A stretch of 34,224 nucleotides of DNA from contig CAZGWN010000036.1 in NCBI GenBank assembly GCA_964528755.1, forward strand, positions 1 through 34,224. Reading direction: 5' to 3'. The stretch comes from an uncultured Propionibacteriaceae bacterium. GTDB lineage: Bacteria; Actinomycetota; Actinomycetes; Propionibacteriales; Propionibacteriaceae. This document shows positions 2,549 to 34,224 of this stretch, one piece after another. Under the pieces are notes generated by a model, which was given only the letters and a program-made list of their open reading frames with translations, was not told the DNA's origin and searched no databases. A program made the position numbers and the translations under genes. Positions within the stretch are counted from its first letter, which is position 1; each line of letters starts with the position of its first letter.

Positions 2549-3952
2549 ATGACCACCCACCGCCCGGCCGTGGGCTCGATCGTGCTGGCCTGCGGGGTGG
2601 TCACCTGCGCCCTCGGTCTGCTCGCCGTCGCCGTGGAGGGTGGGGTCGGGGCAGCCGTGGAGCGGTCCGTGGCCGCCGACCCGCAGCCCGCCGGGCAGAC
2701 CCCCGCGATCGGATCGTGGTCGCCCGTCCCGCTGCCCCAGGCGACTCCCGCCACCCCCGTCGCAACCCCGGTGGCGGGCACCCTGGACCCCGGGCCGTAC
2801 GCCGCCGCCCTGGACGGCGTCACCGGCTCGGGCCTGTCCGGGGACCGGTACGGGGTCGTGGTCGACCCGGTGAGCGGTGACGCGCTCTGGGACAGCGGCG
2901 CCGATGAGGCCGTGCTGCCCGCCTCGACCATGAAGCTGCTGACCTGCCTGGCCGCCCTGGACCTGCTCGGCCCCGCGCACCGCTTCCGGACCGCCGTCGT
3001 GGCCGGCGCCGACGACACGATCGTGCTGGTCGGGGGCGGGGACCCGTACCTGTCCTCGAAGCCGACCGCGAGCGCGCCGGGCCGGGCGAGCGTGAGCGAC
3101 CTCGCCGCGCGGACCGCCGGGGCCCTGCACGCCGCCGGGACCACGAAGGTGCGGGTGGCCTGGGACAACACGTTGTTCGACGAGTCCGGGTGGAACGACG
3201 ACTGGCCGACCACGTACGCCGACCAGGTCACCCCGGTCGGCGCGCTGGTCGTCGACCAGGGCCGGCTCGACGGCACCAGCCCCGGGCGGCGTACCACCAC
3301 GCCGGGCCGGGATGCCGCCGAGGCGTTCGTCGCCGCGCTGGAGGGGGCCGGGATCGACGCATCGCTGACCGACCCGGCCGAGGCACCCGAGGGCGCCGAG
3401 GAACTGGCGGCGGTGGACTCGTTGCCCCTCAGCGGGATCGTCGAGAACCTGCTGGTCCACTCCGACAACGACGCCGCCGAGATCCTCGCCCACCAGGTTG
3501 GCGTCGCGGCCGGCACGGGCGGCTCCTTCGAGGGCGCCGCCGACGGCGTCCGGCAGGTCCTGACCGAACACGACCTGTGGGACGACCACGCGGTGCTGTC
3601 GGACGGGTCGGGGCTGTCCCGGGAGAATCGGGTGACGCCGACGATGCTGGCCGGGGCGGTCGCCCTGGCCGTGACCGACGACCGCTATCGGGCCCTGCTG
3701 TCCGGGCTGCCGGTCGGGGCCGCCACCGGCACCCTCGCCGAACGGTTCGGCGCCTCGGCGGCAAGCGCCGGTCGGGGTGCCGTCCACGCCAAGACCGGCA
3801 CCCTGTCCGGGACGAGCGCTCTGGCCGGCTACGCCGTCGGCGCCGGGGACGCGCCGGTGGTCTATGCCTTCGTCGTCAACGACTCCACCGACGACGTCTC
3901 AGCGCGGGCCTGGCTCGACCGGGCAGCGAGCGCGGTGGTCTCCGCCCGATAG
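2549..3952 (+). CDS. dacB: D-alanyl-D-alanine carboxypeptidase/endopeptidase, PBP4 family (peptidase S13)
   Basis: 467 aa with an N-terminal TM/signal segment. Carries SxxK 'STMKLLT', SDN 'HSDNDAAE' and KTG 'HAKTGTL' motifs. ATG at 2549 follows an AGGAGG RBS. Confidence 0.88.
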   Translation: MTTHRPAVGSIVLACGVVTCALGLLAVAVEGGVGAAVERSVAADPQPAGQTPAIGSWSPVPLPQATPATPVATPVAGTLDPGPYAAALDGVTGSGLSGDRYGVVVDPVSGDALWDSGADEAVLPASTMKLLTCLAALDLLGPAHRFRTAVVAGADDTIVLVGGGDPYLSSKPTASAPGRASVSDLAARTAGALHAAGTTKVRVAWDNTLFDESGWNDDWPTTYADQVTPVGALVVDQGRLDGTSPGRRTTTPGRDAAEAFVAALEGAGIDASLTDPAEAPEGAEELAAVDSLPLSGIVENLLVHSDNDAAEILAHQVGVAAGTGGSFEGAADGVRQVLTEHDLWDDHAVLSDGSGLSRENRVTPTMLAGAVALAVTDDRYRALLSGLPVGAATGTLAERFGASAASAGRGAVHAKTGTLSGTSALAGYAVGAGDAPVVYAFVVNDSTDDVSARAWLDRAASAVVSAR

Positions 3953-3962
3953 CCGACCCGGC

Positions 3963-5114
3963 TCACGCGGTGAACTGTCGCGCCCACCACGCGCGCCAGT
4001 GGATCTCCTCGGCGTGCCGGTAGTACTGCAGGAGCCGTTCGGTCGACGCCCGCCAGCTCCACTTGCGGGTCTCGATCCGGGCCGCCCGACCGAAGGCGTC
4101 ACGCATGCCGGGGTCGTTGATCAGCAGCATCACCTTGTCGGCGAGTTCGCCGGCGTCGTCGGGCCGGAAGAGGAAGCCGTTCTCCCCGTCGGAGATGACA
4201 TCGGGGATGCCCCCGGCCCGCGCGCCGACGACCGGGACGCCGCTGGCCATCGACTCCAGCGCCACCAGCCCGAGTGTCTCGGTAGTGGACGGGAAGGCGA
4301 AGACGTCCGCGGAGGCGTACGCCGCGGCGAGGTCGTCCCCGGCGAGGTAGCCGGTGAAGACCGTCGGCGTGCCGGCGAAGTCGCGTTCCAACTGCTCGCG
4401 GGCCGGCCCCGACCCGACGAGGGCCAGGCGTACGCCCGGCATCCGGTCCATCGCCCGGCGCAGCACATCGAGGCACTTCTCGGGGGCGAGCCGCCCGACG
4501 TAGACCACCAGGGGGGCCTCCGGGTGCCCGTCGGTGAGCCGGGCCCGCATCGCCGCGGATCGCTTCGCCGGGTCGTACGTCTCCGTGTCGACCGCCTTCG
4601 GCCACAGCCGGACCCGCCTGATGCCGATCTCGCGTGCCGCGTCGACCATCTGCGGCGAGGTGCACAGGTTGATGTCGGCCTGGTTGTGCAGCCCGGCGAT
4701 GTAGCGCTTGGAGAAGGTCTGCAGGAACCCCAGATCCATCGCCGCCGTGTACTTGGGCAGGTCGGTGTGGAACGACGCCAGCAGCGGGACGTTGCGCCGC
4801 TTCGCCGACAGCACCCCGTACGCCGCCAGGGCCACCGGGTTGACGGCATGGACGACATCGGGGGTGAACTCCTCCAGGGTGCGCGCGATCCGCGGCGTCG
4901 GCAGCCCGACGTGGAGCTCGGGATACCACGGCTCGAGCCGGGCCGACCGCACCCGGACCACCGGGAAACCCGCATACTCGGTCAGCTCGGTCCCCGGCGC
5001 GAAGATCACCACCTCCTGGTCGAGGGCGGCCAGCTGCTCGATGGTGCGGATGAGCCGGGTGACCACCCCGTCGATCTTGGGCAGGAAAACCTCGGTGAAG
5101 ACAGCGATGCGCAC
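3963..5114 (-). CDS. GT4 family glycosyltransferase, SqdX/SQD2-like (candidate sulfoquinovosyltransferase)
   Basis: 383 aa. N-terminus 'MRIAVFTEVFLPKIDGVVTRL...NLCTSPQMV' closely resembles cyanobacterial SqdX. Has a GT-B C-terminal E-x7-E region. Lies 30 bp downstream of the sqdB-like gene on the same strand. Confidence 0.7.
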   Translation of the reverse strand: MRIAVFTEVFLPKIDGVVTRLIRTIEQLAALDQEVVIFAPGTELTEYAGFPVVRVRSARLEPWYPELHVGLPTPRIARTLEEFTPDVVHAVNPVALAAYGVLSAKRRNVPLLASFHTDLPKYTAAMDLGFLQTFSKRYIAGLHNQADINLCTSPQMVDAAREIGIRRVRLWPKAVDTETYDPAKRSAAMRARLTDGHPEAPLVVYVGRLAPEKCLDVLRRAMDRMPGVRLALVGSGPAREQLERDFAGTPTVFTGYLAGDDLAAAYASADVFAFPSTTETLGLVALESMASGVPVVGARAGGIPDVISDGENGFLFRPDDAGELADKVMLLINDPGMRDAFGRAARIETRKWSWRASTERLLQYYRHAEEIHWRAWWARQFTA

Positions 5115-5143
5115 GGCGTGACGCTACCGGGTCGCGCCGGCGG

Positions 5144-6442
5144 TCAGGCCCGCGCCGCGTCCTTGCCGTTCACCCGGGCCGGCCTCCCGGCAGACTCGGC
5201 GAGTGGTGCCGCCGGCTCGGCGGGCGCCGCGGGGGCGCCCGCGGCGTCCTCGTAGCCGGCGGGGATCCCCGGCTTCTGTTCCTTGGTCCACAGGGACCGG
5301 GCCGGGATCCGTGACAGGTCACACCGGTCGGCGTAGCGCCCGGCGATCTCGGTGACCTCCATCATCAGCCCGTCGTCGAGGGTGATCGGCCGCCACCCGT
5401 ACGACAGGAAGGTGTCGTGCGCGACGTAGAGCTCGTTCTCCTGGTCCTCCTTGCGGGGATCGGGGACGAAGGCGACCTCGGCGCCGGTCATCCCGGCGAT
5501 CTTGCGCGCGAGGTCGCGCACCCGCAGGGTCTCGGCCTGCTGATTGAGGATCTTCACCCGTTCGCCGGACTGCGGCGGATTGTCCAGCGCCATCCCGACG
5601 CAGTTCGCGGTGTCCTGGATGTGGATGAAGGCACGGGTCTGCCCGCCGGTGCCGTGGACGGTCAGCGGGTAGCGAACGGCGGCCTGCATGAGGAAACGGT
5701 TGAGCACCGTGCCGTAATCGCCGTCGTAGTCGAACCGATTGACGAGCCGATCGTCGAGCTTACACTCGGCGGTGTTGGTGCCCCAGACGATGCCTTGGTG
5801 CAGGTCGGTGACCCGCAGCCGGTCGTTCTTGGCGTAGTACGCGAAGAGCAGTTGGTCCAGCGTCTTGGTCATGTGGTAGACCGAGCCCGGGTTCGTCGGG
5901 TAGAGAATCTGCTCGGGCACCGGATCGGCGCCGTCACGCGGGATCTGGATGTTGAGGTAGCCCTCGGGGATCCGCATCCCCGCGGTGCCGTACCCGTAGA
6001 CGCCCATCGTGCCGAGATGGACGATGTGGATGTCCAGCCCGGACTCCACCACCGCGGCCAGCAGGTTGTGGGTGGCATTGACGTTGTTGTCGACCGTGTA
6101 GCGCTTGTGCGCGGAGTTGGTCATCGAGTACGGGGCCGAGCGCTGCTCGGCGAAGTGGACCACCGCGTCCGGGCGTTCCTGGCGCAGCATGGCCAACAGA
6201 CCCGCGTAATCCTGCGCGAGGTCCTGGTTGCGGAAACGGATGTCCTTGCCGGTGACCTCGTGCCAGGCGGTGAGCCGCTCACCGATGGTCGTGATGGGCG
6301 TCAGGGATTCGACGCCGAGCTCGACGTCGATCGCCCGCCGGGAGAGGTTGTCGACGATGACGACATCGTCACCGCGGTTTGACAGATGCAGGGCCGTCGG
6401 CCAGCCGCAGAAGCCGTCGCCGCCCAGAACCAGTACTTTCAC
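5144..6442 (-). CDS. sqdB: UDP-sulfoquinovose synthase-like NAD-dependent epimerase/dehydratase (SQD1/SqdB/Agl3 family)
   Basis: 432 aa. 'MKVLVLGGDGFCGWPTALHLS...VVIVDNLSRR', 'HFAEQRSAPYSM', 'LGTMGVYG', 'YHMTKTLD' and 'LNRFLMQAAVRYPLTVHGTGGQTRAFI' are collinear with plant SQD1 and bacterial SqdB over the whole length. Ala/Pro-rich C-terminal tail. Confidence 0.78.
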   Translation of the reverse strand: MKVLVLGGDGFCGWPTALHLSNRGDDVVIVDNLSRRAIDVELGVESLTPITTIGERLTAWHEVTGKDIRFRNQDLAQDYAGLLAMLRQERPDAVVHFAEQRSAPYSMTNSAHKRYTVDNNVNATHNLLAAVVESGLDIHIVHLGTMGVYGYGTAGMRIPEGYLNIQIPRDGADPVPEQILYPTNPGSVYHMTKTLDQLLFAYYAKNDRLRVTDLHQGIVWGTNTAECKLDDRLVNRFDYDGDYGTVLNRFLMQAAVRYPLTVHGTGGQTRAFIHIQDTANCVGMALDNPPQSGERVKILNQQAETLRVRDLARKIAGMTGAEVAFVPDPRKEDQENELYVAHDTFLSYGWRPITLDDGLMMEVTEIAGRYADRCDLSRIPARSLWTKEQKPGIPAGYEDAAGAPAAPAEPAAPLAESAGRPARVNGKDAARA

Positions 6443-6657
6443 AACGCCTCCAGAGGAATCTCTGCCTTGCCGCCCGAGTTTCGGGACTGCCGGCTGCTTC
6501 GACCACGATAACGCAGGATCCCCTCGGTTTCAGGGCCGTCAACCGGCGCCCCGCGGTGAGGTGAAGGGCAGGAGACAGGCCGGTGAACAGCGGGTGGCGT
6601 CGGTGCTTCGTGACAGAATGGAACGTCGCACATCCGGCCAGACAGGAAGAGGATGAG

Positions 6658-7125
6658 ATGGCAGACGTGAAGGATCGACTGCGCGCCGACATGAAGGAGG
6701 CCATGAAGGCCCACGACCAGGCCCGCCTGGGCGCCATCCGGATGGCCCTTGCCGCGATCGGCAACGCCGAGGTGGAGGGGACCGCCCACGCCCTCAGCGC
6801 CGAGGAGGAGCAGCAGATTCTCACCCGCGAGGTCCGTCAGCGCAGGGACTCCGCCGCCGCGTACGCCGACGGGGGGCGCCAGGACCTGGTCGACAAGGAA
6901 CTGGCCGAGGCCGAGATCCTCCAGGCGTACCTCCCCGAGCCACTGACGCAGACCCAGGTGGTCGGCCTGGTCGAGGAGGAGTACGCCAAGGTCGCCGCCT
7001 CGGGCCACACCCCCTCGATGCGCGACATGGGCGCCATCATGAAGGCGGTCAACGCGAAGATCGCCGGACGCTTCGACGGCTCCCAGGTCGCCGCCCTGGT
7101 GAAGGCCCGGCTGAACGCCGGGTGA
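6658..7125 (+). CDS. GatB/YqeY domain-containing protein
   Basis: Helical ~155 aa protein, 'MADVKDRLRADMKEAMKAHDQARLGAIRMALAAIGNAEV...'. ATG at 6658 with a GGAAGAGGA RBS. The longer annotated ORF start at 6583 was not adopted. Confidence 0.7.
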   Translation: MADVKDRLRADMKEAMKAHDQARLGAIRMALAAIGNAEVEGTAHALSAEEEQQILTREVRQRRDSAAAYADGGRQDLVDKELAEAEILQAYLPEPLTQTQVVGLVEEEYAKVAASGHTPSMRDMGAIMKAVNAKIAGRFDGSQVAALVKARLNAG

Positions 7126-7223: not shown

Positions 7224-7341
7224 CGCACGTCATCTCCCCCACCGGCGCCGTTATCCGAACGTGACTTCAGCTTTATCGTTCCGTGATCCTGTGGTTAGTC
7301 TCAGGCGTTCGTTCATCCGACACCGGATCACCGGGAGGATC

Positions 7342-8415
7342 ATGACCACCACGTACGTTGCCCGCGCCGGCGCCCTCGGAGCGCTGCTCAGCCTCGCCTC
7401 CCTCGCCGTGGGGGCCCCGGCGCTGGCCGCGGGACCGCAGTCGCCCACCACCGGGGCCGCCGACACCTCCACGCACGCCCCCGTCGCGGCCTCGAGCGCG
7501 CCGGAGACCCGATCGGCCCAGCCGGTCGCCGCCCGACGCACGAGCTCCACCACGATCGGCGACCACGTCGTCAAGGGCCGGATCGGTGCGGCGTACCTCG
7601 CCGCCGGCGGCACGAAGTCGACCCTCGGCACGCCGACCTCGGAGGAGTACACGATCCAGGACGGGATCATCGCCCAGAACTTCTCCGAAGGGCGGATGTA
7701 CTACACCCCGCGCACCGGGGCCCACGGTGTCCGCGACCACCTCTACCCGACCTATCGGGTGCTCGGCCGCAGTACCTCGGTGCTCGGGCTGCCGACGTCG
7801 GGCCAGATCACCACCTCGTACGGCATCCTGCAGCGTTTCGAGCACGGCTCGATGACCTGGAACCGATCGAGCGACCGGGTGACGGTGCGGGACGCGAACG
7901 GCACGGTGCTGCGCCGGGGCACCTCCGACGGCACCCGTACCTCGACGGGCTCGACGTCGTCGTCGTCGGCGTCGTCGGGCACCTCGAAGTCGTCCGCGGC
8001 GAAGTCGTCCGCGGCGAAGCCGAAGCGGGCCATCACCGAGGAGTCCTCGACATCCCGGTCCTCGACGAGGGCGACCCAGAAGTCGACCACCTCGGCCAAG
8101 AAGTCCACGTCCTCGACCAAGAAGTCCACGTCGGCCAAGAAGTCCACGTCCTCGGCGTCCTCGGGCTCGTCCACCGGCTCGTCTGTCTGGGACAGGCTGG
8201 CCCAGTGCGAGTCCAGTGGCAACTGGTCGATCAACTCCGGCAACGGCTTCTACGGCGGCTTGCAGTTCACCCTGTCGACCTGGCGGGCCTACGGCGGTAG
8301 CGGGATGCCGAACCAGGCCTCCCGCGCCGAGCAGATCCGGGTCGCCCAGAAGGTCCAGGCCGGACAGGGCTGGGGCGCGTGGCCGGCGTGCTCCAGCAAG
8401 CTCGGGTTGCGCTGA
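7342..8415 (+). CDS. Secreted Rpf-like transglycosylase with LGFP repeats and a Ser/Thr/Lys-rich linker
   Basis: Signal peptide 'MTTTYVARAGALGALLSLASLAVGAPALA'. Two to three LGFP-type repeats ('LGTPTSEEY...', 'LGLPTSGQI...'). C-terminal transglycosylase-like (Rpf) domain 'CESSGNWSINSGNGFYGGLQFTLSTWRAYGG'. GGGAGG RBS before the ATG at 7342. Confidence 0.75.
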   Translation: MTTTYVARAGALGALLSLASLAVGAPALAAGPQSPTTGAADTSTHAPVAASSAPETRSAQPVAARRTSSTTIGDHVVKGRIGAAYLAAGGTKSTLGTPTSEEYTIQDGIIAQNFSEGRMYYTPRTGAHGVRDHLYPTYRVLGRSTSVLGLPTSGQITTSYGILQRFEHGSMTWNRSSDRVTVRDANGTVLRRGTSDGTRTSTGSTSSSSASSGTSKSSAAKSSAAKPKRAITEESSTSRSSTRATQKSTTSAKKSTSSTKKSTSAKKSTSSASSGSSTGSSVWDRLAQCESSGNWSINSGNGFYGGLQFTLSTWRAYGGSGMPNQASRAEQIRVAQKVQAGQGWGAWPACSSKLGLR

Positions 8416-8742: not shown

Positions 8743-8818
8743 TGGAGCCACCTACCGGAATCGAACCGGTGACCTACGCTTTACGAGAGCGTCGCTCTAC
8801 CTACTGAGCTAAGGTGGC
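8743..8818 (-). tRNA. tRNA-Thr (anticodon CGT)
   Basis: The reverse complement folds as a canonical cloverleaf. Acceptor GCCACCT/AGGTGGC, D-arm GCTC-AGTAGGTA-GAGC, anticodon stem ACGCT/AGCGT with loop CTCGTAA, T-arm ACCGG-TTCGATT-CCGGT, and an encoded CCA. Confidence 0.9.
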
Positions 8819-9823: not shown

Positions 9824-11248
9824 TCAGATCTGCTGAAGGTCCCACTTCGCGCGGCGGCGCTGCAGCCGGCTCTTGCGAACGGCCGCGTCAATACCCCACG
9901 ATCCCCCGCCGATCAGCAACAGGAGCAGGCCGACGCCGGCGAGCAGCAGCTCCAGTTCACCGTGGAAGCCGGCCACTCCCGACTCGAACGGCGACCTCCA
10001 CCAGTAGACGAAGGTCAACGCGCCCGCAGCGATGGCCACGGTCCCGACGCCGGCCACCCGTACGAGCAGCCCGAAGACCAGCGCCACCGCGATGAGGACG
10101 GAGGCGCAGGCCGTGACCCATGCGGCAATCTCCGGGTAGGGCAGCGCCGTGGCCGAGAAGGTCTGGATGGTCGTCGGCATGTCGAGCAGTTGCTGTGCAC
10201 CGCGGATCCCCATGATGGCAGCCACCACCAGACGCAGGGCGAACAGACCGAAGGCACCCGCCGGCCGGTCCGTGGTCCGATCGAGCCTGGTGGAGGGCGG
10301 CTGGGGAGCCACCTCGGGTTCGGGCGCGGGGCGGCGCCGGCCCAGCGCCCGGTCGCGGGCCTCACGTTCGGCGAGCCAGGCGGCCCGGCGTTCCAACTCG
10401 GCCGCATCGGCCGCCGAATCGGCGTCGCTCACCCCGGCCGCCGATGGGGCGAACGGCGCGGCGCGGCGCGGGGCCGCGGCCGGGATCACCTCGGTCGGCT
10501 GGGCGTCGGTCGTGGGAAGTACGCCGGTGGGCTGGGCATCCTCCTCACTGGTGACGACCCGGCGCGGGGACAGCGGGACCGTCGGTGCGGGCTCCACCGG
10601 TGCCGGCTCCGCTGGGGCGGGCTCCGCCGCGGCGGCCGGCTCGGGTGGAGCCTCCTCGGCAGCCTCCTCAGCGGACTCCTCGGCGGCTTCGTGCGAGTCC
10701 GGCGCCGAGGCAGGGGAGTCCGCCCCGCCGTCCCCCGCCGTCGGGGTGACCGCCGTCGGATGGGCCGTTCTCAGCAGAGGCTCGGGGGGCGTCGCCGGGA
10801 CTGCCCCGGGGCCTTCACGTGGCGGCTCCGTCACCGCCCCGCCCGGCTCGACATCGGCTTCGTTCGGCTCCGCGGCGGCCCAATCGGCCGCGGTCCGGGG
10901 GGTGGGCTCGGGAACACCCGGCCCCGCCGGGCTCTGCGGCCCGTCGTCGACCTCATCGGCACCACGGTCCTCCGATGCCGGCGCCGCCGTCGGAGTCCGC
11001 TGGCTCGCCGCATCCTCCGCAGGGGCATCGGCGCCGGGGCTGCTCGGGGTCGACCCCGCCCGGGAGGTGGCGCCGAACGCGGCGGGTGCCGACGGCGTCC
11101 GTTCGGATCGCGGCGCGCCGACCGAGCGCACCTCCTCACGGTCGATGCGGATGATCGTCGGTTCGTTCTCGTCCTGGACGCCGAACTCCTCGAGGGGGTC
11201 GGTCGCCGGGGACGGCGAACCATCGTCGTCATTGTCACGAGAGGTCAC
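9824..11248 (-). CDS. Membrane protein with a long Pro/Ala/Glu-rich disordered N-terminal region and a C-terminal 4-TM DoxX-like domain
   Basis: The C-terminal ~150 aa have four hydrophobic helices ('LVVAAIMGIRGAQ...', 'IAAWVTACASVLIAVALVFGLLV', 'VGTVAIAAGALTFVYWW', 'LLLAGVGLLLLLIGG'). Candidate GTG start at 11248 with AGGAC upstream, but the start is uncertain because of the low-complexity region. In frame within a larger 780 aa ORF whose upstream part overlaps holB. Confidence 0.5.
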   Translation of the reverse strand: MTSRDNDDDGSPSPATDPLEEFGVQDENEPTIIRIDREEVRSVGAPRSERTPSAPAAFGATSRAGSTPSSPGADAPAEDAASQRTPTAAPASEDRGADEVDDGPQSPAGPGVPEPTPRTAADWAAAEPNEADVEPGGAVTEPPREGPGAVPATPPEPLLRTAHPTAVTPTAGDGGADSPASAPDSHEAAEESAEEAAEEAPPEPAAAAEPAPAEPAPVEPAPTVPLSPRRVVTSEEDAQPTGVLPTTDAQPTEVIPAAAPRRAAPFAPSAAGVSDADSAADAAELERRAAWLAEREARDRALGRRRPAPEPEVAPQPPSTRLDRTTDRPAGAFGLFALRLVVAAIMGIRGAQQLLDMPTTIQTFSATALPYPEIAAWVTACASVLIAVALVFGLLVRVAGVGTVAIAAGALTFVYWWRSPFESGVAGFHGELELLLAGVGLLLLLIGGGSWGIDAAVRKSRLQRRRAKWDLQQI

Positions 11249-11337
11249 GGCTGAGGTCCTAACAGTCGGCGGGTACCACGCCCATTGTCCCCACCCGAAC
11301 GGCTCCGACGGCACAGGGCGGCGGGGAGTGTCGCGGC

Positions 11338-18518: not shown

Positions 18519-19754
18519 TCACTGGTGCCGGTGGGCACCGCGTCCCACCAGCTCCGTGACCAGCACCGCCACGAGCAGCGCCGCGCCCAGCAGCGGGGTG
18601 GCGGCACTGAGCAGGACCTGCCCCGGGGAGTAGTCGAGTTCCTGCATGCCGCCCGCGGGCAGGATCTGATAGGGCGCGATCCAGACCCACAGGACGAGAA
18701 CGGCGCCGATGCCGAGCACCCACCCGGACTGCGCCGGGTGTGCCTCGCGGCGGACGCGCTGGACGAGCAGGACGGCCAGCGGCACGATCCACACGAAGTG
18801 GTGGGTCCACGAGACCGGGGAGACCAGGGCACTGGTGAGCCCGACGAGCACGATGCCCAGCGCCTCCTCCCCTCGCCGGCGGAGGACGAGGGCGGCGGCG
18901 ATGCCGAGCACCAGGACGATCACCGAGACCGCCGTCCCCACGGCCGGTCCCGTGGTCAGCCCGAACGCCCGCATCGCCGCGCCGGTGAAAGACTGGTTGT
19001 CCAGATAGATCGGGTCGGACTCGAACCCGACCGAGTGCGTCGTCGCCAGGCGGTGCCAGTAGAACGCCGAGTAGCCCGGCAGCACTGCCCACCCGATCGC
19101 GGTGAGTACGGCCGCGGTGACGATGGCGACCAGCGCCTCGCGCCGGCGCCGGGCGAGCAGCAGGTAGACGATGAACAGGCCCGGCGTCAGCTTGATCGCG
19201 GTCATCAGGCCGACGATCCAGCCGGCCGGCAGACGACGACGCCCCGGCGCCCCCGGCATGATGTCCAGCAGGATCAGACAGGTCAGCAGGATCTCGACCT
19301 GTCCGAGAGCCGTGGACAGGGTCACCGGCACCGCGGTGGCGATGGCGGCCGCCGCGACCAGTGAGGCCGGCCGGCCCCGCAGCCCGCAGCGGTGCACCAC
19401 GGCGATGATGCCCGCCCAGCCGGCGATCGCCCACAGGATTTTCCACCCGGCGGTGGGTCCCAGCAGGAAGACCATGAACCCGATTGCGGCGATCGGCGGG
19501 TAGACGAAGGCATTCGGGCCGTCGCGATAGAGCTCCCCGCCGTGCAGCGCGGCCCTCGCCCCGTCGACGTAGATGCCGAAGTCGGCCATCGCGCCGGCGA
19601 GCCCGTCCGGGGACAGCGCCTGCGGGATGAGCCAGGACACGAGGCCGGCCACGATCGGCAGGCCGAGCTGGGCGAGGACCCGGATCCGCGCACGCCGGTC
19701 CTGCGGCCCCGGCCGTTCGTACGTGTCGGTGCGGGTGTCCACGGTTGCCTCCAC
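18519..19754 (-). CDS. GT87/DUF2029 family integral-membrane glycosyltransferase (polyprenyl-phosphate-sugar dependent, GT-C-like)
   Basis: 411 aa with ~10 TM helices and an 'AIKLTPGLF' motif typical of DUF2029 mannosyltransferases. GTG start. Confidence 0.65.
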   Translation of the reverse strand: MEATVDTRTDTYERPGPQDRRARIRVLAQLGLPIVAGLVSWLIPQALSPDGLAGAMADFGIYVDGARAALHGGELYRDGPNAFVYPPIAAIGFMVFLLGPTAGWKILWAIAGWAGIIAVVHRCGLRGRPASLVAAAAIATAVPVTLSTALGQVEILLTCLILLDIMPGAPGRRRLPAGWIVGLMTAIKLTPGLFIVYLLLARRRREALVAIVTAAVLTAIGWAVLPGYSAFYWHRLATTHSVGFESDPIYLDNQSFTGAAMRAFGLTTGPAVGTAVSVIVLVLGIAAALVLRRRGEEALGIVLVGLTSALVSPVSWTHHFVWIVPLAVLLVQRVRREAHPAQSGWVLGIGAVLVLWVWIAPYQILPAGGMQELDYSPGQVLLSAATPLLGAALLVAVLVTELVGRGAHRHQ

Positions 19755-22381: not shown

Positions 22382-23023
22382 TCAGCAGCCGGGCTGGAAG
22401 CGCGATTTGAGCCATGCCCCGGACTGGTAGGCGAACGAGAACAGCCATTGCCCGACCGAGTGCGGCTGACGGAACTCCCACACCTCGACCGTCGGGCCGT
22501 CGACGCACCGGTTCATCCACATCCGGGCCCGGGCGACGTGAGCGGTGGTGGTGAGCACGGCGACGTGGTCCCAGCCGCGCTCGGCGGCCACCCGGTTGAG
22601 CAGGCGGGCCTCACCCCTCGTCGTGTACGGGTCCGGGTCGACGCACTCGATGATGATGTCGGGCAGGCCCGGATAGCCGGCACAGTAGTCCCGCGGATAG
22701 CGTTCACCGGTGCGTGGGTCGACCGACACCGTGGTCAGGATCGTGGCGGTCAGGCCACTCCGCGCCAGGTCGATCGCCAGCGGCATCCGCTCCTCGGCAG
22801 GCCCGATGACGTACAGGGCGTCGACCGGCTGGGGCTGATCCACCCGCGGGTGGACGACGAAGCGCCAGCACAGTCCGAGCCAGACCAGGACGGCCGCGAC
22901 CAGCGCGATCAGGATGATGAGGAATGTACGCACCCGGTGGCGTCGCCGGTCAGGTCGCTCTCGCGGGTACGCATGGCGGCCTCCGCCGATGCCCATCGGT
23001 GTTTCGGCCCCAGGCTCCGCCAC
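22382..23023 (-). CDS. DUF218/YdcF-SanA-like membrane-anchored protein
   Basis: 213 aa. N-terminal TM 'FLIILIALVAAVLVWLGLCW' followed by a DUF218-like core ('DALYVIGPAEERMPLAIDLARSG', 'VAVLTTTAHVARARMW'). Confidence 0.6.
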   Translation of the reverse strand: MAEPGAETPMGIGGGRHAYPRERPDRRRHRVRTFLIILIALVAAVLVWLGLCWRFVVHPRVDQPQPVDALYVIGPAEERMPLAIDLARSGLTATILTTVSVDPRTGERYPRDYCAGYPGLPDIIIECVDPDPYTTRGEARLLNRVAAERGWDHVAVLTTTAHVARARMWMNRCVDGPTVEVWEFRQPHSVGQWLFSFAYQSGAWLKSRFQPGC

Positions 23024-23032
23024 AGGCCCAGC

Positions 23033-23905
23033 CTACTGGCGGCCGCGGGCGAGTTGTTGGAGGAGGTAGGTGCCGTAGCCGGACTTGACCAGGCTCTCGG
23101 CCCGGGCGCGCAACTCGTCGTCGGACAAGAACCCCATCCGCCAGGCCGCCTCCTCCGGACACCCCACCTGCAACCCCTGCCGGGCCTGCAGGGTCCGCAC
23201 ATAGTTGCCCGCATCGTTCAACGAGTCGAACGTGCCGGTGTCCAGCCACGCCGTCCCCCGCGGCAACACCTCCACCTGCAGGCGACCCGCACGCAGATAG
23301 TGATCGTTGACGTCGGTGATCTCGTACTCCCCCCGCGCCGACGGCTGCAAGGATCGCGCGATCTCGACCACCTGGTTGTCATAGAAATACAGCCCCGGCA
23401 CCGCAAAATTCGACCGCGGCACCGCCGGCTTCTCCTGCACCGACAACGCCCGCCCCGACCCGTCGAACTCGACCACCCCGTACGCGGACGGGTCGGCCAC
23501 CCAGTAGGCGAACACCGCCGCACCCTCCAGACTCTCAAACCGGCGCAGCCGGGTCCCCAGACCCGGACCGTAGAAGATGTTGTCACCCAACACCAACGCG
23601 ACCCGATCGGACCCGATGAACCCCGCCCCGATCGTGAACGCCTGCGCCAGACCCCTCGGCTCCGGCTGCGTCGCGTAGGACAGCGACACCCCGTAGCGCG
23701 ACCCGTCACCCAACAACCGCTCGAACGCGGGCGCGTCGGCCGGGGTGGTGATGATCAAAATGTCGCGGATCCCCGCCAGGATCAGCGTCGTCAACGGGTA
23801 ATAGATCATCGGCTTGTCATAGACCGGCACCAACTGCTTCGACACCCCGATCGTGATCGGATGAAGACGCGTACCAGCCCCACCAGCCAAAATGATCCCC
23901 CGCAT
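23033..23905 (-). CDS. rmlA: Glucose-1-phosphate thymidylyltransferase
   Basis: '[38 protein letters not shown]...' is the canonical RmlA N-terminus. ~290 aa. The annotated 396 aa ORF is an upstream extension. Confidence 0.9.
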
Positions 23906-24093
23906 AAACCCGACTCTGGCAGCCCGGCCGAGGAGCCGCAAGTCGGGAGCCACCGGCGGTCGCGCCCGGGACCACCGTCGGTCCGCAGGAAGGGAAACCC
24001 AACTTGGCGCGGCCGCCGCACCCTGATAGTTTCTGACCCGGATGCTCGGGAGCATCCGGTCGGAAAGCAAGACGCAAACCTTGGGGGACGTCC

Positions 24094-24648
24094 ATGCGCA
24101 GTGAACACAGGTCAACTCAGGCGGCCACGTCACGGCCGTCACGCCGCACCGTCGTGCAGGGAGCCGCGTGGGCCACGCCGGCGATTGCGCTCGGCAGTGC
24201 CGTGCCCGCCATGGCCGCCTCACCGACTCCGGGCGAGTGCCTGGTGTTCTCCCTGGCCGGTGACTCCTGCAAGTGGCCCGGCTCGGGGAGCAAATGGTCG
24301 TACCACCTCGTTCTTTGCGTGGCGAAGTCCCCCTCCTGCGCTGACACCGGCGAGGCGACGCTCACAATCACCCGCCTCACGAACAACGCCGATAAGCCCC
24401 TGACGTCTTGCGGTGACACCCCGTTCCCGCTGACGTTGACCGTGCCCGCGACCGGCCAGATCTGCCGCGACCTCGGCGCCTTCCGCTCTGAAAGCTCCGC
24501 CAGCAAGATCGTCATTTACGGCAGCGCGGGCGGCACCGGGACCGTTAAGCTCGGGGAAGTAGACGCCCCCCGGATTGCGGCGAGGACGACGAGAGCCCCT
24601 GCGCCTCCTGAGCCCCGCGGTCGCGCCGGCGGCTACCATGCTGACTAG
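24094..24648 (+). CDS. Small secreted Cys-rich hypothetical protein with a Tat-like signal ([12 protein letters not shown])
   Basis: 184 aa. Twin-arginine motif plus hydrophobic segment, with predicted AMA-ASP cleavage. Seven Cys in the mature part. GGGGGACG RBS. Divergent from rmlA. Confidence 0.45.
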
Positions 24649-24686
24649 GTTCGGCCGTCCGTGCCGCACATACACTCGGGGGATGC

Positions 24687-26522
24687 ATGCGCACAGGCAG
24701 TCCTGAGGGACCGGCCTGGCTGAGGAACGTTCAGAGGGTCAGGCGGCCGCTCACACTGGTTCCGTGGCGGATGCGCGGGAAGCTCTTCCTGCTGGGCGCT
24801 GCCAGTGTCCTGTCCGCGCTCCTGGATCTGGCGGGCGTGCTGGCCATGATGCCGCTGATGCAGCTCCTCACAGTGCCGGACTCGGTGCCCGGCGTCCTGC
24901 AGCGTTTCCTGGTGCCGGTCGTCGGCACGGACAACCGGCGGACCCTCCTGCTGGCCACCGCGCTGTTTGTCGGCCTCATGTTCATCCTCAAGAACGTGAC
25001 GATGGTCGTCCTGCGCTGGTGGAGCATCGGGGTCACCTCCCGAGCGTCGGCAGCCGCCCAGGCCACGTTGCTCGACAAGTACGTCCACGCGTCGTACGCC
25101 TCCCACCGCCAGCGCACCAAACCCAAGATCATCCAGGCCGTCACGGGGGCCGTGGACTCCTACTTCGCCGGGGTGCTGCTCGGCGTCATCGGGATCCTCA
25201 CCGACCTGGTCACGGCCGCCGTCCTGCTGATCTCGCTCCTCGTTCTCGCCCCCGTGGCGTCACTGGTGGCCGCCGTCGTCTTCTGTGGTGCCGCGCTGTT
25301 CATGGTTCGTGTCCTCAAGCCGTACGCCATCCGCCTCGGACTCCGCGGTCTCGAGCTCAGCACGCGCATGTGGAGCTATCTCAACCCGGCCATCGAAGGA
25401 TTCCGGGAATCCCGCATCTTCGGACGCGAGGACTTCTTCGTTCAGCAGTTCCGAGCGAATCGCTTCGAGTCGATCAACCCCAAGCGGGGCAATCAGGTGC
25501 TGGGCGAACTGCCGCGGTACTTCATGGAGATCGTCATGATCTTCGGGATCCTCGCCGTCGCCATCCTCGTGTTCTCCACCCGTCCCGACGGCGAGGCCTT
25601 CGGCCTGTTGGCGGTCTTCGCCGCGGCATCGGTCCGGATCGCCCCTGCGCTGAACCGGGTGGTCGCCGCGGTCAACGGGCTGCGCTCGAGCGCGGCGTCG
25701 CTCGACATGCTCCTCGAGGAAATGACCAACCTCGACTCCGAGGACTCCACCGTCACCGAGGCCACGGACGATGTCCAGACGATTCCCGACGGCGACATCG
25801 ACGTCGCAGACGTGAGTTTCCGCTACCCCGACGCGTCAACCGACGTCCTCACCGACATCACCGTCACCATCCCTCGCGGTCGCACCATCGCCCTCGTCGG
25901 ATCCTCCGGCGCAGGCAAGACGACGTTCGCCGATCTGCTGCTGGGCCTGCTGGTCCCGACATCGGGCACCATCTCGGTGAGCGGCATCGACGTTTCCCGC
26001 CACCCGCATGCCTGGCGCCGAAGCGTCGCGGCCGTCTCCCAAAAGGTCTACCTGTGGGACGCCCCCGTCCGCGACCTCATCACCTTCGGACAACCCGCCG
26101 ACGACGTCGACCACGAACTGCTGACCCAGGTGACCCGACAGGCCCGCCTCGAGGACATCATCGCCTCGCTCCCACACGGACTCGACACCTACGTAGGCGA
26201 AGGCGGCACCCGCCTCTCCGGCGGCCAGGCCCAACGCATCGGCATCGCCCGCGCCCTGTACGCCCAGCCGCACGTGCTGATCATGGACGAGGCCACCAGC
26301 GCCCTGGACAACGAAACCGAACATGAGATCACCTCCACGATCGACGCCCTGCACGGCCAACTCACCGTCATCGTCATCGCCCACCGCCTCTCCACGGTAC
26401 GCAACGCCGACCAGATCCTGTTCTTCTCCCAAGGCCGCCTCGCCGACCGCGGCTCGATGTCCTCACTACGCCAGACAAACGCCGAATTCGCCCACCTCGT
26501 CGAACTCGGGCAGTTGGCGTAG
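24687..26522 (+). CDS. ABC transporter, fused permease/ATPase (type I exporter)
   Basis: Six N-terminal TM helices. Walker A 'GSSGAGKTT', signature 'LSGGQAQRIGIARAL', Walker B 'LIMDEATSALD', H-loop 'IAHRL'. Start uncertain between 24687 and 24771. Confidence 0.85.
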   Translation: MRTGSPEGPAWLRNVQRVRRPLTLVPWRMRGKLFLLGAASVLSALLDLAGVLAMMPLMQLLTVPDSVPGVLQRFLVPVVGTDNRRTLLLATALFVGLMFILKNVTMVVLRWWSIGVTSRASAAAQATLLDKYVHASYASHRQRTKPKIIQAVTGAVDSYFAGVLLGVIGILTDLVTAAVLLISLLVLAPVASLVAAVVFCGAALFMVRVLKPYAIRLGLRGLELSTRMWSYLNPAIEGFRESRIFGREDFFVQQFRANRFESINPKRGNQVLGELPRYFMEIVMIFGILAVAILVFSTRPDGEAFGLLAVFAAASVRIAPALNRVVAAVNGLRSSAASLDMLLEEMTNLDSEDSTVTEATDDVQTIPDGDIDVADVSFRYPDASTDVLTDITVTIPRGRTIALVGSSGAGKTTFADLLLGLLVPTSGTISVSGIDVSRHPHAWRRSVAAVSQKVYLWDAPVRDLITFGQPADDVDHELLTQVTRQARLEDIIASLPHGLDTYVGEGGTRLSGGQAQRIGIARALYAQPHVLIMDEATSALDNETEHEITSTIDALHGQLTVIVIAHRLSTVRNADQILFFSQGRLADRGSMSSLRQTNAEFAHLVELGQLA

Positions 26523-26726
26523 CCGCCCGGCCGCCACTACCCGGGGCCGCACGAACGCCCTCTCGCACTCCTCGCCCTGGCTCGAAAGTCGTCTGACAGC
26601 GACGTCACTGGCAACCCATCGCCCTCCACACCGATTCGCGTCGATCACAGAGAATTCATTAGTAAAGACACCAACCTTCCAAGGAACCCGCAGAAGGTCC
26701 ACTAGTGTCGCGTTTCCGACAGTGGA

Positions 26727-28105
26727 GGGTCTGTCCGGTAAACGGTGTGTGGGGTCCGGCGGTTTTCAGTGAGTGGCTCTCTCGAACCGTCCGGCGAAGG
26801 TGATCGCGAACGCGTTCAGCGCGGGCTTCCACCTCATCACCCAGCGTGCCCTGCCCCCGCCGGTGGGGTCAAGCGACCTCGTCACGAGATAGAGGCACTT
26901 GAGCGCGGCTGCCTCGTTCGGGAAGTGGCCGCGCGCCCTGACTGCCCTGCGGTATCTCGCGTTGATCGACTCGATCGCGTTGGTCGTGCAGATCACTCGC
27001 CGGATCTCGACGTCGTACTCCAGGAACGGCACGAACTCTGCCCAGGAGCTGCGCCAGAGCTGGATGATCGCCGGATACCGCTCACCCCACTCGGTAGCGA
27101 ACTCCTCGAACCGGTCCTTCGCCGCTTGCTCGGACGGAGCCGTATAGACCGGCTTGAGGGACTTTACGATCGCGCCCCGGTGCTGCCGTCCGGCGTAACG
27201 GAAGCTGTTGCGGATCAGGTGGACGATGCACTGCTGCACGACCGTCTGCTCCCAGGTGGTGTTGATCGCCTCCGGCAGCCCCTTGAGGCCGTCGCACACC
27301 GCGATCAGCACGTCCTCGACTCCGCGGTTCTTCAGCTCGCTGAACACCGGCAGCCACAACCTCGCCCCTTCCGCGCCGTCACCGGCCCAGATACCCAGGA
27401 TGTCGCGTTCCCCGTTCGTAGTGACGCCCATGACGACGTAGAACGGGGTGTTGCGGACCTGCCCGTCACGGACCTTCACCACGATCGCGTCGACGAAGAT
27501 CACCGGGTAGATCGCATCCAGCGGCCTGCTCGACCATTCGGCGAGTTCCCCGGTGACCTTCTCGGTGATCGGGCTGATCGTGTCCTTGGAGACCTTCGCC
27601 CCATAGACCTCGTCAAAATGCGCGGCGATCTCTCCGGTCGTGAGCCCTCTCGCGGTCAGCGACAGCACGATCTGATCGATCCCGTCCAGCCGCCGTTTGC
27701 GCTTCGGGACGATCACCGGCTCGAAGGACCCGTCACGATCCCGGGGAACCTCGATCTCGACGGGCCCGATCTCGGTGAGCACGGTCTTCGTCCGGCTCCC
27801 ATTGCGCATGTTCACCCCCAGCGGGGTCTCGCCGTGCTCGTGGCCGAGATGCTCGGTCAGCTCAGCGTTCAGCGCGGTCTCAAGCACGTTCTTCGAGAGC
27901 TGGTTCAACAGGCCACCAGGCCCGACCAGGCTCACACCCTGCTCCTTCGCCTGCGCAAGCAAGCGCTCGGCAAGGTCCTTCTGATCGATGATCCCTCCCG
28001 TCACGGGGTCAATCATCTCGTCGTCCAGCCGTTCGGTCGTGTCAGCCACGGCCGTCTCCTTTCGGATCAGGCCGGACCCTCACACACCGTTCTTCTGACA
28101 GTCCC
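26727..28105 (-). mobile_element. IS256-family insertion sequence, apparently intact (~1.38 kb) with imperfect ~30-bp terminal IRs
   Basis: Left end GGGTCTGTCCGGTAAACGGTGTGTGGGGTCC. The right-end reverse complement GGGACTGTCAGAAGAACGGTGTGTGAGGGTCC shares the core AACGGTGTGTG. Encloses a complete 427 aa transposase. No clean direct repeat at the flanks. Confidence 0.8.
26766..28049 (-). CDS. IS256-family (mutator-type) transposase
   Basis: 427 aa with DDE-type mutator-family motifs ('IYPVIFVDAIVVKVR', 'VLIAVCDGLKGLPEAI', 'VVQQCIVHLIRNS', 'RRVICTTNAIESINARYRR'). Confidence 0.9.
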   Translation of the reverse strand: MADTTERLDDEMIDPVTGGIIDQKDLAERLLAQAKEQGVSLVGPGGLLNQLSKNVLETALNAELTEHLGHEHGETPLGVNMRNGSRTKTVLTEIGPVEIEVPRDRDGSFEPVIVPKRKRRLDGIDQIVLSLTARGLTTGEIAAHFDEVYGAKVSKDTISPITEKVTGELAEWSSRPLDAIYPVIFVDAIVVKVRDGQVRNTPFYVVMGVTTNGERDILGIWAGDGAEGARLWLPVFSELKNRGVEDVLIAVCDGLKGLPEAINTTWEQTVVQQCIVHLIRNSFRYAGRQHRGAIVKSLKPVYTAPSEQAAKDRFEEFATEWGERYPAIIQLWRSSWAEFVPFLEYDVEIRRVICTTNAIESINARYRRAVRARGHFPNEAAALKCLYLVTRSLDPTGGGRARWVMRWKPALNAFAITFAGRFERATH

Positions 28106-29208
28106 AAAGTTGGTTGATGGTTCGCTTTCCTGAGGATTTCGTCGGCGGTCTTGGTCCAGATGAAGGCGTGTTTGCGGTCGTTCCAGCCGGTGATGAATTG
28201 CCGGATCTTGGCATTGAGGTCTTTCACGCTTGTGAACACGCCGCGGCGGATCGCTTGCTTGTCGATGATCCCGAACCAAACTTCGACGAGGTTCAGCCAC
28301 AACCCGGATGTCGGGGTGAAGTGCACGTGGAAGCGGGGATGCTTCTGGAGCCAGTCGTCGACCTCGGGGGTCTTGTGGGTGGCGTAGTTGTCCATCACCA
28401 GGTGCAGGTCCTGGTCCCGGTAGGCGCGATCCAGCTGGCGGAGGAAGGCAAGGAACTCCTGGCGGCGGTGCTTCGGCTTGACCGCGCCGGTGACGTGCCC
28501 GGTCGCGATCTCCAGCGCCGCGAACAGTGTCGTCGTGCCGTGCCGCTCGTAGTCGTGGGTGCGTTTCTCCGCATCGCCCGGCCGCATCGGCAGCATCGGC
28601 GCGGTGCGGTCCAGCGCCTGAATCTGGCTCTTCTCATCCACGCACACCACGACCGCGTTATCCGGCGGCGCCACATACAGGCCGACGACGTCGGTGACCT
28701 TACCGACCAACTCCGGGTCGGTGGGGAACTTGAACGTCTCGGCCCGCCAGGGCTGCACCCCGTACGTGCGCCACGCCCGCGCCACCGTCGCGTTCCCGAT
28801 TCTCAAGTGATCCGCCAACAGCCGCGACGACCAGTGCGTCACCCCGAACTTTCTCGGCGGCTGCTGCAGTGTCGCCGTGATGATGCGCTCGTCATCGACG
28901 TGCTTGGGACGCCCCGCACGCGGCGCGTCGACCAGGCCCGCCAGCCCCGCCTCGGCATACCGGTTCCGCCACGTCCACACCGACGTCGTCGTCGTTCCCA
29001 CCTCGGCCGCGATCCGCGCATTCGCGATCCCCTCCGATGCGAGCAGCACGATCCGGGCCCTCCTCGCCAGCCCCGCACCGATTGCCGTGGACCGCGTCCA
29101 CGACATCAACTCATCCCGATCACCATCCCAGAGCACCAACGCCGGAGCAGGAGAACTCGCCACAACCAAACTCTCCCAAACCACCAAACACTCACGAACT
29201 AACGGCAC
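28042..29208 (-). CDS. IS630-family transposase; the last ~21 codons are read-through into IS256 sequence
   Basis: N-terminal HTH ('LVLWDGDRDELMSWTRSTAI...ARRARIVLLASEGIANARIAAEVG') and a DDE domain ('VVCVDEKSQIQAL', 'LHLVMDNYATHKT', 'HFTPTSGLWLNLVEVWF'). The frame runs across the IS256 junction. Confidence 0.75.
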   Translation of the reverse strand: MPLVRECLVVWESLVVASSPAPALVLWDGDRDELMSWTRSTAIGAGLARRARIVLLASEGIANARIAAEVGTTTTSVWTWRNRYAEAGLAGLVDAPRAGRPKHVDDERIITATLQQPPRKFGVTHWSSRLLADHLRIGNATVARAWRTYGVQPWRAETFKFPTDPELVGKVTDVVGLYVAPPDNAVVVCVDEKSQIQALDRTAPMLPMRPGDAEKRTHDYERHGTTTLFAALEIATGHVTGAVKPKHRRQEFLAFLRQLDRAYRDQDLHLVMDNYATHKTPEVDDWLQKHPRFHVHFTPTSGLWLNLVEVWFGIIDKQAIRRGVFTSVKDLNAKIRQFITGWNDRKHAFIWTKTADEILRKANHQPTLGLSEERCVRVRPDPKGDGRG

Positions 29209-29240
29209 GAGACACTAGAAGGCCGAGATGCTCCGACCTG
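28106..29240 (-). mobile_element. IS630-family element whose 3' end is interrupted by the IS256 insertion
   Basis: Contains the IS630-type transposase ORF. The native C-terminus and right IR are displaced by IS256 at 28105/28106. The outer boundary near 29240 is approximate. Confidence 0.55.
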
Positions 29241-29279
29241 CTGACTGGACCCGGATCGTTTCCGGTTCCTGGGAGCTTG

Positions 29280-30392: not shown

Positions 30393-30648
30393 GCCGCACC
30401 TCTCCAAGCCGCCGTGACGTCCAAGACCACCGACGGCACGCCTTACGAATGACCGATTGGGCCCCCTGCCGAATTGCATTGAGCACTTCTCCAGCACAAG
30501 ACCAGGCCAGCCCCCACCTGCAGCCGTGGCCCTGCAACATCAAGGGACGTGCGCTGCACAGGCAGGCACTTGCCCGGGATGATCCTACGGCCGGCACTCC
30601 GACGGGCGCGAACTCGGGAGCCGGCCTCAATCCTTCACCGGTTGGGCT

Positions 30649-34194: not shown

Positions 34195-34224
34195 GCGGGG
34201 TGTGAGCAGGTCCGGCGCGTCGGT

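Follow-up and report, generated by a model that had tools for sequence, protein, structure and literature searches.

The window analysed here is a 34,224-nucleotide (nt) stretch of DNA from an uncultured Propionibacteriaceae bacterium (contig CAZGWN010000036.1). It carries a two-gene operon, sqdB followed by an sqdX-like glycosyltransferase (GT) gene, whose products we propose make the anionic, phosphorus-free lipid sulfoquinovosyldiacylglycerol (SQDG) in a non-phototrophic, Raineyella-like member of this family, a reading to which we give a probability of about 0.75. Judged by sequence, the operon joins an alpha-proteobacterial-type SqdB with a cyanobacterial/plant-type SqdX. By analogy with SQD1 and Agl3, SqdB, an extended short-chain dehydrogenase with tightly bound NAD+, would oxidise uridine diphosphate (UDP)-glucose at C4, elimination of water would then give a 5,6-ene intermediate, and addition of sulfite at C6 would yield UDP-sulfoquinovose (UDP-SQ). 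A retaining enzyme of family GT4 with the GT-B fold would move sulfoquinovose (SQ) from UDP-SQ, its predicted donor, to sn-1,2-diacylglycerol (DAG), its predicted acceptor, to form alpha-SQDG. A promoter in the yqeY-sqdB intergenic region probably drives expression, and a motif in that region suggests that phosphate limitation probably raises it via a PhoP-type operator, with SQDG replacing phosphatidylglycerol. The two genes lie in the window as follows.

5144..6442, minus strand: sqdB, predicted UDP-sulfoquinovose synthase of the alpha-proteobacterial 'GTMGVYGYG' type, 432 amino acids (aa) (PDB SQD1, NCBIfam and S. meliloti alignment)
5115..5143, minus strand: 29-nt spacer from the sqdB stop to the GT4 start (read from the sequence)
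3963..5114, minus strand: sqdX-like GT4 glycosyltransferase gene, 383 aa (Pfam, SQD2 hidden Markov model and SqdX identity)

Both open reading frames (ORFs) occupy the same strand in the ORF list and in the sequence, and the short spacer between them is consistent with co-transcription. Their GC content at third codon positions (GC3), 0.91 for sqdB and 0.94 for the GT4 gene, is typical of real genes in a window of ~70% GC, and the best-matching proteins for both genes come from Raineyella (Propionibacteriaceae), at 84-85% identity. A Peptidase_S13 (dacB-type) gene at 2549-3952 on the plus strand converges with the GT4 gene, a YqeY gene flanks sqdB in divergent orientation, and the window is otherwise a typical actinobacterial housekeeping region with ppa, an Rpf-like gene, PSP1, holB, tmk and topA. 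The first-pass annotation, which had read this pair as an sqdB-sqdX-like operon for a sulfoquinovose lipid or glycoconjugate in an actinobacterium, is borne out by the intact SqdB, by a GT closest to SQD2/SqdX and by linkage of the two genes across genomes. In particular, both ORFs lie where it had described them, between dacB and yqeY, and all the motifs that it quoted are present, namely GGDGFCGW, HFAEQRSAPYSM, LGTMGVYG and YHMTK in SqdB and the N-terminus MRIAVFTEVFLPKIDGVVTRL in the GT.

The 432-aa protein is a predicted UDP-sulfoquinovose synthase (EC 3.13.1.1 family). It aligns with the sequence of the Arabidopsis SQD1 crystal structure in the PDB at E = 1.5e-91 (residues 2-387 on 3-384) and shows 62% full-length identity to SqdB of Sinorhizobium meliloti, in agreement with the collinearity with SQD1, SqdB and Agl3 described for it earlier; identity reaches 68% to the homologue of Pelagovum (Rhodobacterales), 70% to that of Truepera and 84% to that of Raineyella. 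The S. meliloti record, which holds the known sqdB-sqdD operon, came from a tblastn search of a plasmid collection, and the role of this operon in SQDG synthesis is established. Among NCBIfam models, the top match is UDP-sulfoquinovose synthase (UDPsulfquin_syn) with 324 bits, against 65 bits for GalE and 42 bits for the dTDP-glucose dehydratase RmlB; because of this difference, the best matches are not to generic epimerases or dehydratases. Some SqdB homologues already carry the automatic label 'UDP-sulfoquinovose synthase'. The S. meliloti record itself (CP090106.1) is labelled 'plasmid pSymB', yet it is 3.7 Mb long with tolQR, ruvAB and sqdB, and it looks chromosomal and mislabelled.

The residues expected of this enzyme are in place. 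The N-terminal GGDGFCGW (residues 7-14) matches the GxxGxxG NAD-binding motif, and Pfam Epimerase scores 80 bits, as for an extended short-chain dehydrogenase/reductase (SDR) fold. Aligned with its homologues, the protein shows an invariant SDR triad of T145, Y189 and K193 (window numbering), equivalent to Thr145, Tyr182 and Lys186 of SQD1, and H96, R101, M146, H190 and Q216 are invariant in the same alignment. The roles of the catalytic residues in SQD1 and Agl3 are described in PMC4388408: His95/96, Arg101 and Met145/146 of Agl3 are essential by mutagenesis, and His183 and Gln209 of SQD1 are also among the catalytic or essential residues. SqdB proteins fall into two clean types, one with 'GTMGVYGYG' in alpha-proteobacteria, Actinomycetota, Deinococcota and Verrucomicrobiales, and the other with 'GTMGEYGTP' in plants, Leptolyngbya, Firmicutes and Chloroflexota.

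The C-terminal end of SqdB departs from its relatives.

5147..5260, minus strand: codons for the Ala/Pro-rich C-terminal SqdB tail, residues 395-432 (low complexity)

This extension, which had been singled out as atypical, is real, with 15 Ala and 5 Pro among the last 38 residues. It is absent from the homologues of Raineyella antarctica, Truepera, Pelagovum and S. meliloti, and the homologues are mostly 398-412 aa long. Because the other Raineyella proteins lack it, the tail is to be read from these comparisons as species-specific low complexity and not as a feature of the family.

The downstream GT4 enzyme is assigned on sequence to the SQD2/SqdX-type subfamily. It has the two-domain GT-B architecture (Pfam Glyco_transf_4 and Glycos_transf_1) with intact UDP-binding motifs, GRLAPEK (GRxxxEK) at residue 207 and FPSTTETLGLVALE (EX7E) at residue 274. 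Its closest characterised relatives are plant SQD2 and cyanobacterial SqdX. Specifically, it is 40-43% identical end to end to authentic plant SQD2 (E about 1e-91 to 1e-93), a profile hidden Markov model (HMM) built from 90 authentic SQD2 proteins gives 303 bits for residues 2-374 of 383, and the enzyme is 49-51% identical to cyanobacterial SqdX from Leptolyngbya PCC 6406, Thermosynechococcus and a Synechococcales metagenome-assembled genome (MAG), in keeping with the earlier description of an SqdX-like GT4 directly downstream on the same strand. These three served as the SqdX references. The plant references are database proteins, dozens of them named 'sulfoquinovosyl transferase SQD2'; an SQD2 query, 40% identical to the window GT4 and 99% to an Arabidopsis lyrata/arenosa protein, served only to retrieve them.

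Other GT families fit less well. The protein falls in no curated bacterial family. Among NCBIfam models the lipid glycosyltransferase GlcN_PG_synth comes first, with 176 bits where the cutoff is 480; for authentic SQD2, too, it is the runner-up, at 135-148 bits. For the window GT4, MshA follows with 107 bits, MGlcDAG synthase with 83 and Agl16 with 45, and PDB structures of GT4 enzymes score at most 82.5 bits. The name MshA (D-inositol 3-phosphate glycosyltransferase), which many homologues bear in UniRef, is an over-annotation, as TIGR03449 gives 107 bits against a cutoff of 462.5. Agl16 was likewise rejected, since NF041010 reaches 44.9 bits against a cutoff of 575 and covers the C-terminal domain only, and so were the glucosyl- and glucuronosyl-DAG synthases Agt and GTcp, which form a separate, shorter GT4 clade and are <25% identical to other GT4s. 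The enzyme is accordingly annotated as a predicted UDP-sulfoquinovose:diacylglycerol alpha-sulfoquinovosyltransferase, with donor and acceptor as putative assignments.

The pairing of the two genes recurs widely. Searching 185,579 species genomes with a GT alignment gave 80 other loci, which were fetched and compared. Of these, 35 are informative, having a GT of 54% identity or more and sufficient sequence upstream of it, and in ~29 of them SqdB directly precedes GT4 on one strand, 12-161 nt away; at two further loci SqdB is cut by the contig edge. The pair occurs in Citricoccus, Kocuria, Gulosibacter, Ornithinimicrobium, Zimmermannella, Corynebacterium and Actinomycetota MAGs, as well as in Trueperaceae/Deinococcaceae and a Verrucomicrobiales MAG; Brevibacterium daeguense and Truepera radiovictrix have the same pairing, and more distant examples come from Leptolyngbya PCC 6406, Alicyclobacillus and Planococcus. 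The near-universal order with short gaps points to an operon that encodes one pathway. In neighbour-joining trees, Actinomycetota and Trueperaceae group together for both proteins. Because the distribution is patchy, the contexts differ and the Raineyella-like proteins are 70% (SqdB) and 61% (GT4) identical to those of Truepera, horizontal spread of the operon among Actinomycetota and Trueperaceae is suggested.

In Trueperaceae (loci L001, L009 and others) the pair belongs to a cluster of a GT2/GT21-like gene (about 405-424 aa), SqdB, GT4 and a GNAT acetyltransferase. GT21 is the family of processive DAG glycosyltransferases, and this neighbour therefore supports a lipid acceptor. At two loci, L016 and L073, the same cluster lacks the SqdB gene between the two GTs, and the cluster is possibly an island of glycolipid genes in which the head-group chemistry varies. 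A linear plasmid of Rhodococcus qingshengii (NZ_CP054208.1) carries an SqdB 57% identical to that of the window amid a distinct sulfur-themed gene set, in the order SulP anion transporter, SqdB, 639-aa hypothetical protein, 624-aa glycosyltransferase and alkyl sulfatase. A GT4 of the SqdX type is absent from it, and the set may encode a separate SQ-glycoconjugate pathway carried on the plasmid.

The region upstream of sqdB holds candidate elements for expression and its control.

6447..6451, minus strand: GGAGG ribosome-binding site, 4 nt 5' of the sqdB GTG (read from the sequence)
6503..6512, minus strand: GTTATCGTGG block with a -10-like TATCGT, candidate sqdB promoter (conserved in Raineyella)
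6560..6588, minus strand: PHO-box-like GTTCACCggccTGTCTCCtgccCTTCACC of three 11-nt direct-repeat units, candidate PhoP operator (motif match)

The ribosome-binding-site region TGGAGGCGTT is conserved in 4/4 Raineyella loci, and the GTTATCGTGG block is invariant in all four of their intergenic regions, as for a putative -10-like element of an sqdB promoter. In Streptomyces, the PHO box consists of 11-nt direct-repeat units, each built on a GTTCACC core (PMC4415409). The window has a single GTTCACCggccTGTCTCCtgccCTTCACC, whose three units depart from the first six core positions (GTTCAC) by 0, 3 and 1 mismatches, and 0/100 shuffles match; the homologous site of R. antarctica, GTTCACCtggcATTCACCcctgCTTCGCC, is a better match than that of the window. 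The yqeY ORF at 6583-7125 on the plus strand probably has its start called too early: Pfam YqeY aligns with it from residue 30 on, and the YqeY proteins of Raineyella have 155-156 aa. Translation likely starts at the ATG near 6658 (MADVKDRL), which would leave a yqeY-sqdB intergenic region of about 215 nt and make the PHO-like box non-coding. In other actinobacterial loci, the two-unit motif GTTCAC-N5-GTTCAC (at most 1 mismatch) occurs 5 times in 3.6 kb upstream of sqdB (three times in Kocuria, and in Citricoccus and Brevibacterium), compared with 9 occurrences, those 5 included, in the same loci entire (306 kb), an enrichment of ~50-fold; upstream of the Deinococcota sqdB copies no such two-unit motif was found. 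Because PHO-box-like repeats lie upstream of sqdB, candidate control by PhoP, with induction by phosphate starvation instead of constitutive expression, is suggested, and SQDG classically substitutes for phosphatidylglycerol when phosphate is limiting.

Several observations speak against SQDG synthesis by this operon and its phosphate control. Upstream of sqdB, the middle repeat unit of GTTCACCggccTGTCTCCtgccCTTCACC is degenerate, and the PHO-like segment is deleted in 2/4 Raineyella loci. For SqdB, the 324-bit score falls below the equivalog cutoff of 575 bits of NCBIfam NF041015. A gene for sulfite supply (cysH) was sought in the window and not found, and among the loci only the Pelagovum plasmid has one. 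At five loci (L016, L019, L030, L033 and L073) a close GT homologue has no SqdB within 8 kb. The literature searched on Actinomycetota, Corynebacterium and Deinococcus yielded no report of an SQ-lipid, the matches for sulfoquinovose in these taxa dealing with catabolism or unrelated work only; the SqdB phylogeny of Villanueva et al. 2014 may already include actinobacterial sqdB. The main residual uncertainty lies with the acceptor and donor of the GT4 enzyme, which cannot be read from sequence.

The low NCBIfam score could mean that the SqdB-like protein is another SDR of the UDP-sugar 4,6-dehydratase or epimerase type that supplies the GT with some other 6-deoxy or 6-modified sugar. The same might be read from the Val that replaces Glu148 of SQD1 in LGTMGVYG, given that the Agl3 E147A mutant is strongly impaired. 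However, SQD1, which has been crystallised and assayed, stays under the cutoff with 485 bits, as do validated S. meliloti SqdB (332 bits) and Leptolyngbya SqdB (471 bits). The enzyme class is thus not delimited by this value, and a sub-cutoff score is no argument against SqdB membership. Nor does Val mark an inactive or different enzyme, because it is common to 119/120 close SqdB homologues and to the genetically validated S. meliloti SqdB; it distinguishes the 'GTMGVYGYG' type, all proteins of which have it. The high identity to this protein, the invariance of the remaining catalytic residues and the presence of a gene for 3'-phosphoadenosine-5'-phosphosulfate (PAPS) reductase, a sulfite producer, directly after the Pelagovum homologue further argue for a UDP-SQ synthase, and we regard a different SDR as highly improbable. 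That homologue lies on a 41-kb plasmid of Pelagovum pacificum (NZ_CP065916.1), where sqdB is followed by cysH and no adjacent SqdD or SqdX is annotated.

The five GT homologues with no nearby SqdB indicate that GT4 apparently works or persists without an adjacent SqdB. The enzyme might then be mainly a glucuronosyl- or glucosyl-DAG synthase that uses UDP-glucuronic acid or UDP-glucose, with adjacency to sqdB reflecting a shared phosphate-starvation regulon and not a pathway. Glycosyl-DAGs are common in Actinomycetota, and SQD2 also synthesises glucuronosyl-DAG. But such an activity would leave UDP-SQ without a transferase, as a tblastn search of the window and all fetched loci for homologues of S. 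meliloti SqdD gave a match only at the S. meliloti locus. Additionally, the conserved sqdB-GT order speaks for a single pathway, and the dedicated synthases Agt and GTcp sit in a different GT4 clade, which together make this alternative improbable.

A third alternative keeps UDP-SQ as donor and changes the acceptor: the GT4 enzyme would hand SQ to a lipoglycan anchor, a cell-wall glycopolymer or a polyprenol-linked or protein glycan, as with Agl3/Agl16, and so form a sulfonated envelope glycoconjugate. Besides the acceptor specificity that sequence leaves open and the missing SQDG reports, this is favoured by the window GT clade (Actinomycetota and Trueperaceae), which forms its own branch apart from cyanobacterial SqdX and plant SQD2, and by the envelope genes nearby (dacB, Rpf-like and GT87). 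Set against these are the 40-51% end-to-end identity to the DAG-using SQD2 and SqdX, a next-closest family (GlcN_PG_synth) that is also a lipid glycosyltransferase, the GT21-like lipid GT in the Trueperaceae context, and an operon of just two genes with neither flippase nor polymerase. The choice offered by the first-pass annotation, a sulfoglycolipid or a sulfoquinovosylated glycoconjugate, therefore stands as far as the SQ pathway is concerned, which SqdB, the GT and their linkage support, whereas a glycan of the Agl16 type is unlikely at 45 bits against a cutoff of 575. A non-DAG acceptor in general we also consider unlikely, though less so than the alternatives above. A somewhat more doubtful extension is that the SqdX-like enzyme of Actinomycetota and Trueperaceae goes beyond SQDG or bypasses it, placing SQ on another envelope acceptor. 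A sulfonated glycolipid anchor could, for example, be extended to a lipoglycan, with a parallel in the lipomannans of Corynebacterium and Micrococcus, whose anchors are glucuronosyl-DAG and dimannosyl-DAG; if so, an SQ-anchored lipoglycan would be a new sulfonated cell-envelope polymer in Gram-positive heterotrophs.

The divergent arrangement of yqeY and sqdB-GT4 is kept in Raineyella fluvialis, R. antarctica and a third Raineyella genome, with a downstream neighbour that varies (dacB in the window, LigB or catalase in other Raineyella), and the dacB, ppa, yqeY, PSP1 and holB flanks are shared by 0/80 other loci. The operon is fixed within Raineyella, lies in other contexts elsewhere and is not core at the level of the phylum. 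The earlier view that the pair belongs to the core genome and is hence constitutive is not supported, because none of the 80 loci shares the flanks, and the PHO-box-like element suggests regulation. The patchy distribution and varied contexts, which suggest horizontal transfer, and several transposases in the window might instead indicate a recent, silent or decaying passenger without an envelope role. This we find scarcely credible: both ORFs are intact with host-like GC3, the operon is kept beside yqeY in four Raineyella genomes at 81-85% protein identity with its ribosome-binding site and -10-like block conserved, and the transposases lie >20 kb off.

The transposases (Mutator family, DDE_3 with helix-turn-helix domains, and DDE_Tnp_1_4) map to 26766-32112. 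From 23000 to 34224 the GC content falls from ~0.72 to 0.58-0.65 with strongly negative GC skew, and this transposase-rich segment at the contig end is probably mobile or foreign. At 23033-24223 on the minus strand, RmlA (glucose-1-phosphate thymidylyltransferase) scores 467 bits, over its cutoff, with a match that begins at ORF residue 108; either its start is called ~107 codons too early or it has an unusual N-terminal extension, and it is not a GalU-type source of UDP-glucose for SqdB. A GT87-family mannosyltransferase gene of the phosphatidylinositol mannoside/lipomannan type at 18519-19754 on the minus strand, ~13 kb from the operon, shows that the organism has machinery for mannolipids or lipoglycans, and no evidence was found that ties it to sqdBX. 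The Rpf-like protein encoded at 7261-8415 on the plus strand combines LGFP repeats with a C-terminal transglycosylase-like domain and has a long linker of low complexity, rich in Ser, Thr and Lys; the counterparts in Raineyella (SH3_3 and Transglycosylas, about 242-252 aa) differ in N-terminal architecture. Between PSP1 and holB, the interval at about 9824-11250 on the minus strand has a Pro/Ala-rich N-terminal part and a multi-pass hydrophobic end where R. fluvialis has a DoxX-family gene, and a 780-aa ORF called there overlaps holB and is certainly over-extended. An Rfam scan of the window found one tRNA (8746-8818, minus strand, 72 bits) and no rRNA despite the lower GC at the end.

The finding extends the host range of a known pathway, and its mechanism is not new. 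In the literature searched, the non-phototrophic producers of SQDG named are only Rhizobiaceae, relatives of Caulobacter and a few Firmicutes, and current reviews, one from 2026, attribute the production of SQ, ~10 Pg per year, to phototrophs and leave only its degradation to heterotrophs. Heterotrophs with this operon may be an unrecognised source of SQ. If the Actinomycetota concerned (Kocuria, Brevibacterium, Corynebacterium, Citricoccus and Raineyella), which are common in soil, skin, cheese rind and sediment, and Trueperaceae do make SQDG, part of the SQ pool would be heterotrophic, above all in dark or phosphate-poor habitats. SQDG would then no longer be a clean biomarker of phototrophs, the 'unidentified glycolipids' in descriptions of actinobacterial species might include a sulfolipid, and a phosphate-sparing membrane strategy would be added to a phylum with no documented one. 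The prediction has good support, is ecologically relevant and is easy to check on strains already in culture collections.

Among known systems, the cyanobacterial sqdB-sqdX pair (S. elongatus PCC 7942, Guler et al. 2000; Leptolyngbya PCC 6406 in this comparison) is alike in gene order, strand and short gap, and the window GT is 49-51% identical to cyanobacterial SqdX; the window operon would work like this pair and like SQD1 and SQD2 of plants. Clade-C cyanobacteria such as S. elongatus use an alpha-proteobacterial-type SqdB (Sato 2021), and the combination of type-2 SqdB with SqdX is reported for them, whereas Leptolyngbya SqdB is of the 'GTMGEYGTP' type and only 44% identical to that of the window. 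Unlike these organisms, the window host is a non-phototrophic Gram-positive without thylakoids or photosystem II, and because of this the lipid cannot serve photosynthesis here. The plant enzymes resemble those of the window in a full-length alignment of Arabidopsis SQD1 with all catalytic residues conserved and in SQD2 as the closest characterised family of GT4 (40-43% end to end), but they have transit peptides, their genes are unlinked, and SQD1 belongs to the other SqdB type, with Glu148 and without the 2+2+3-residue insertions.

The alpha-proteobacterial sqdBDC and sqdA system (Rhodobacter sphaeroides, S. meliloti) has the same type of SqdB, with 62-68% identity, the GTMGVYGY motif and the insertions, and this pathway serves non-phototrophs under phosphate limitation, a role proposed here as well. 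It differs after UDP-SQ, where SqdD (GT8-like), SqdC and SqdA act and sulfoquinovosyl-glycerol is acylated; here SqdD was not found, and a GT4 SqdX stands in its place. Agl3 of Sulfolobus acidocaldarius carries out the same UDP-SQ synthase reaction, and its mutationally defined residues are conserved in the window SqdB, but Agl16 belongs to a different family from the window GT, and in the archaeon SQ ends up on a protein glycan instead of a lipid. The SQDG producers among Firmicutes (Bacillus coahuilensis, Marinococcus and Salinicoccus) are, as here, non-phototrophic Gram-positives with adjacent sqdB and sqdX. The sqdB-GT pairs seen in Alicyclobacillus and Planococcus belong to this other phylum and differ from the window operon in a plant/cyanobacterial-type SqdB (41-46%) and a more distant GT (41-46%).

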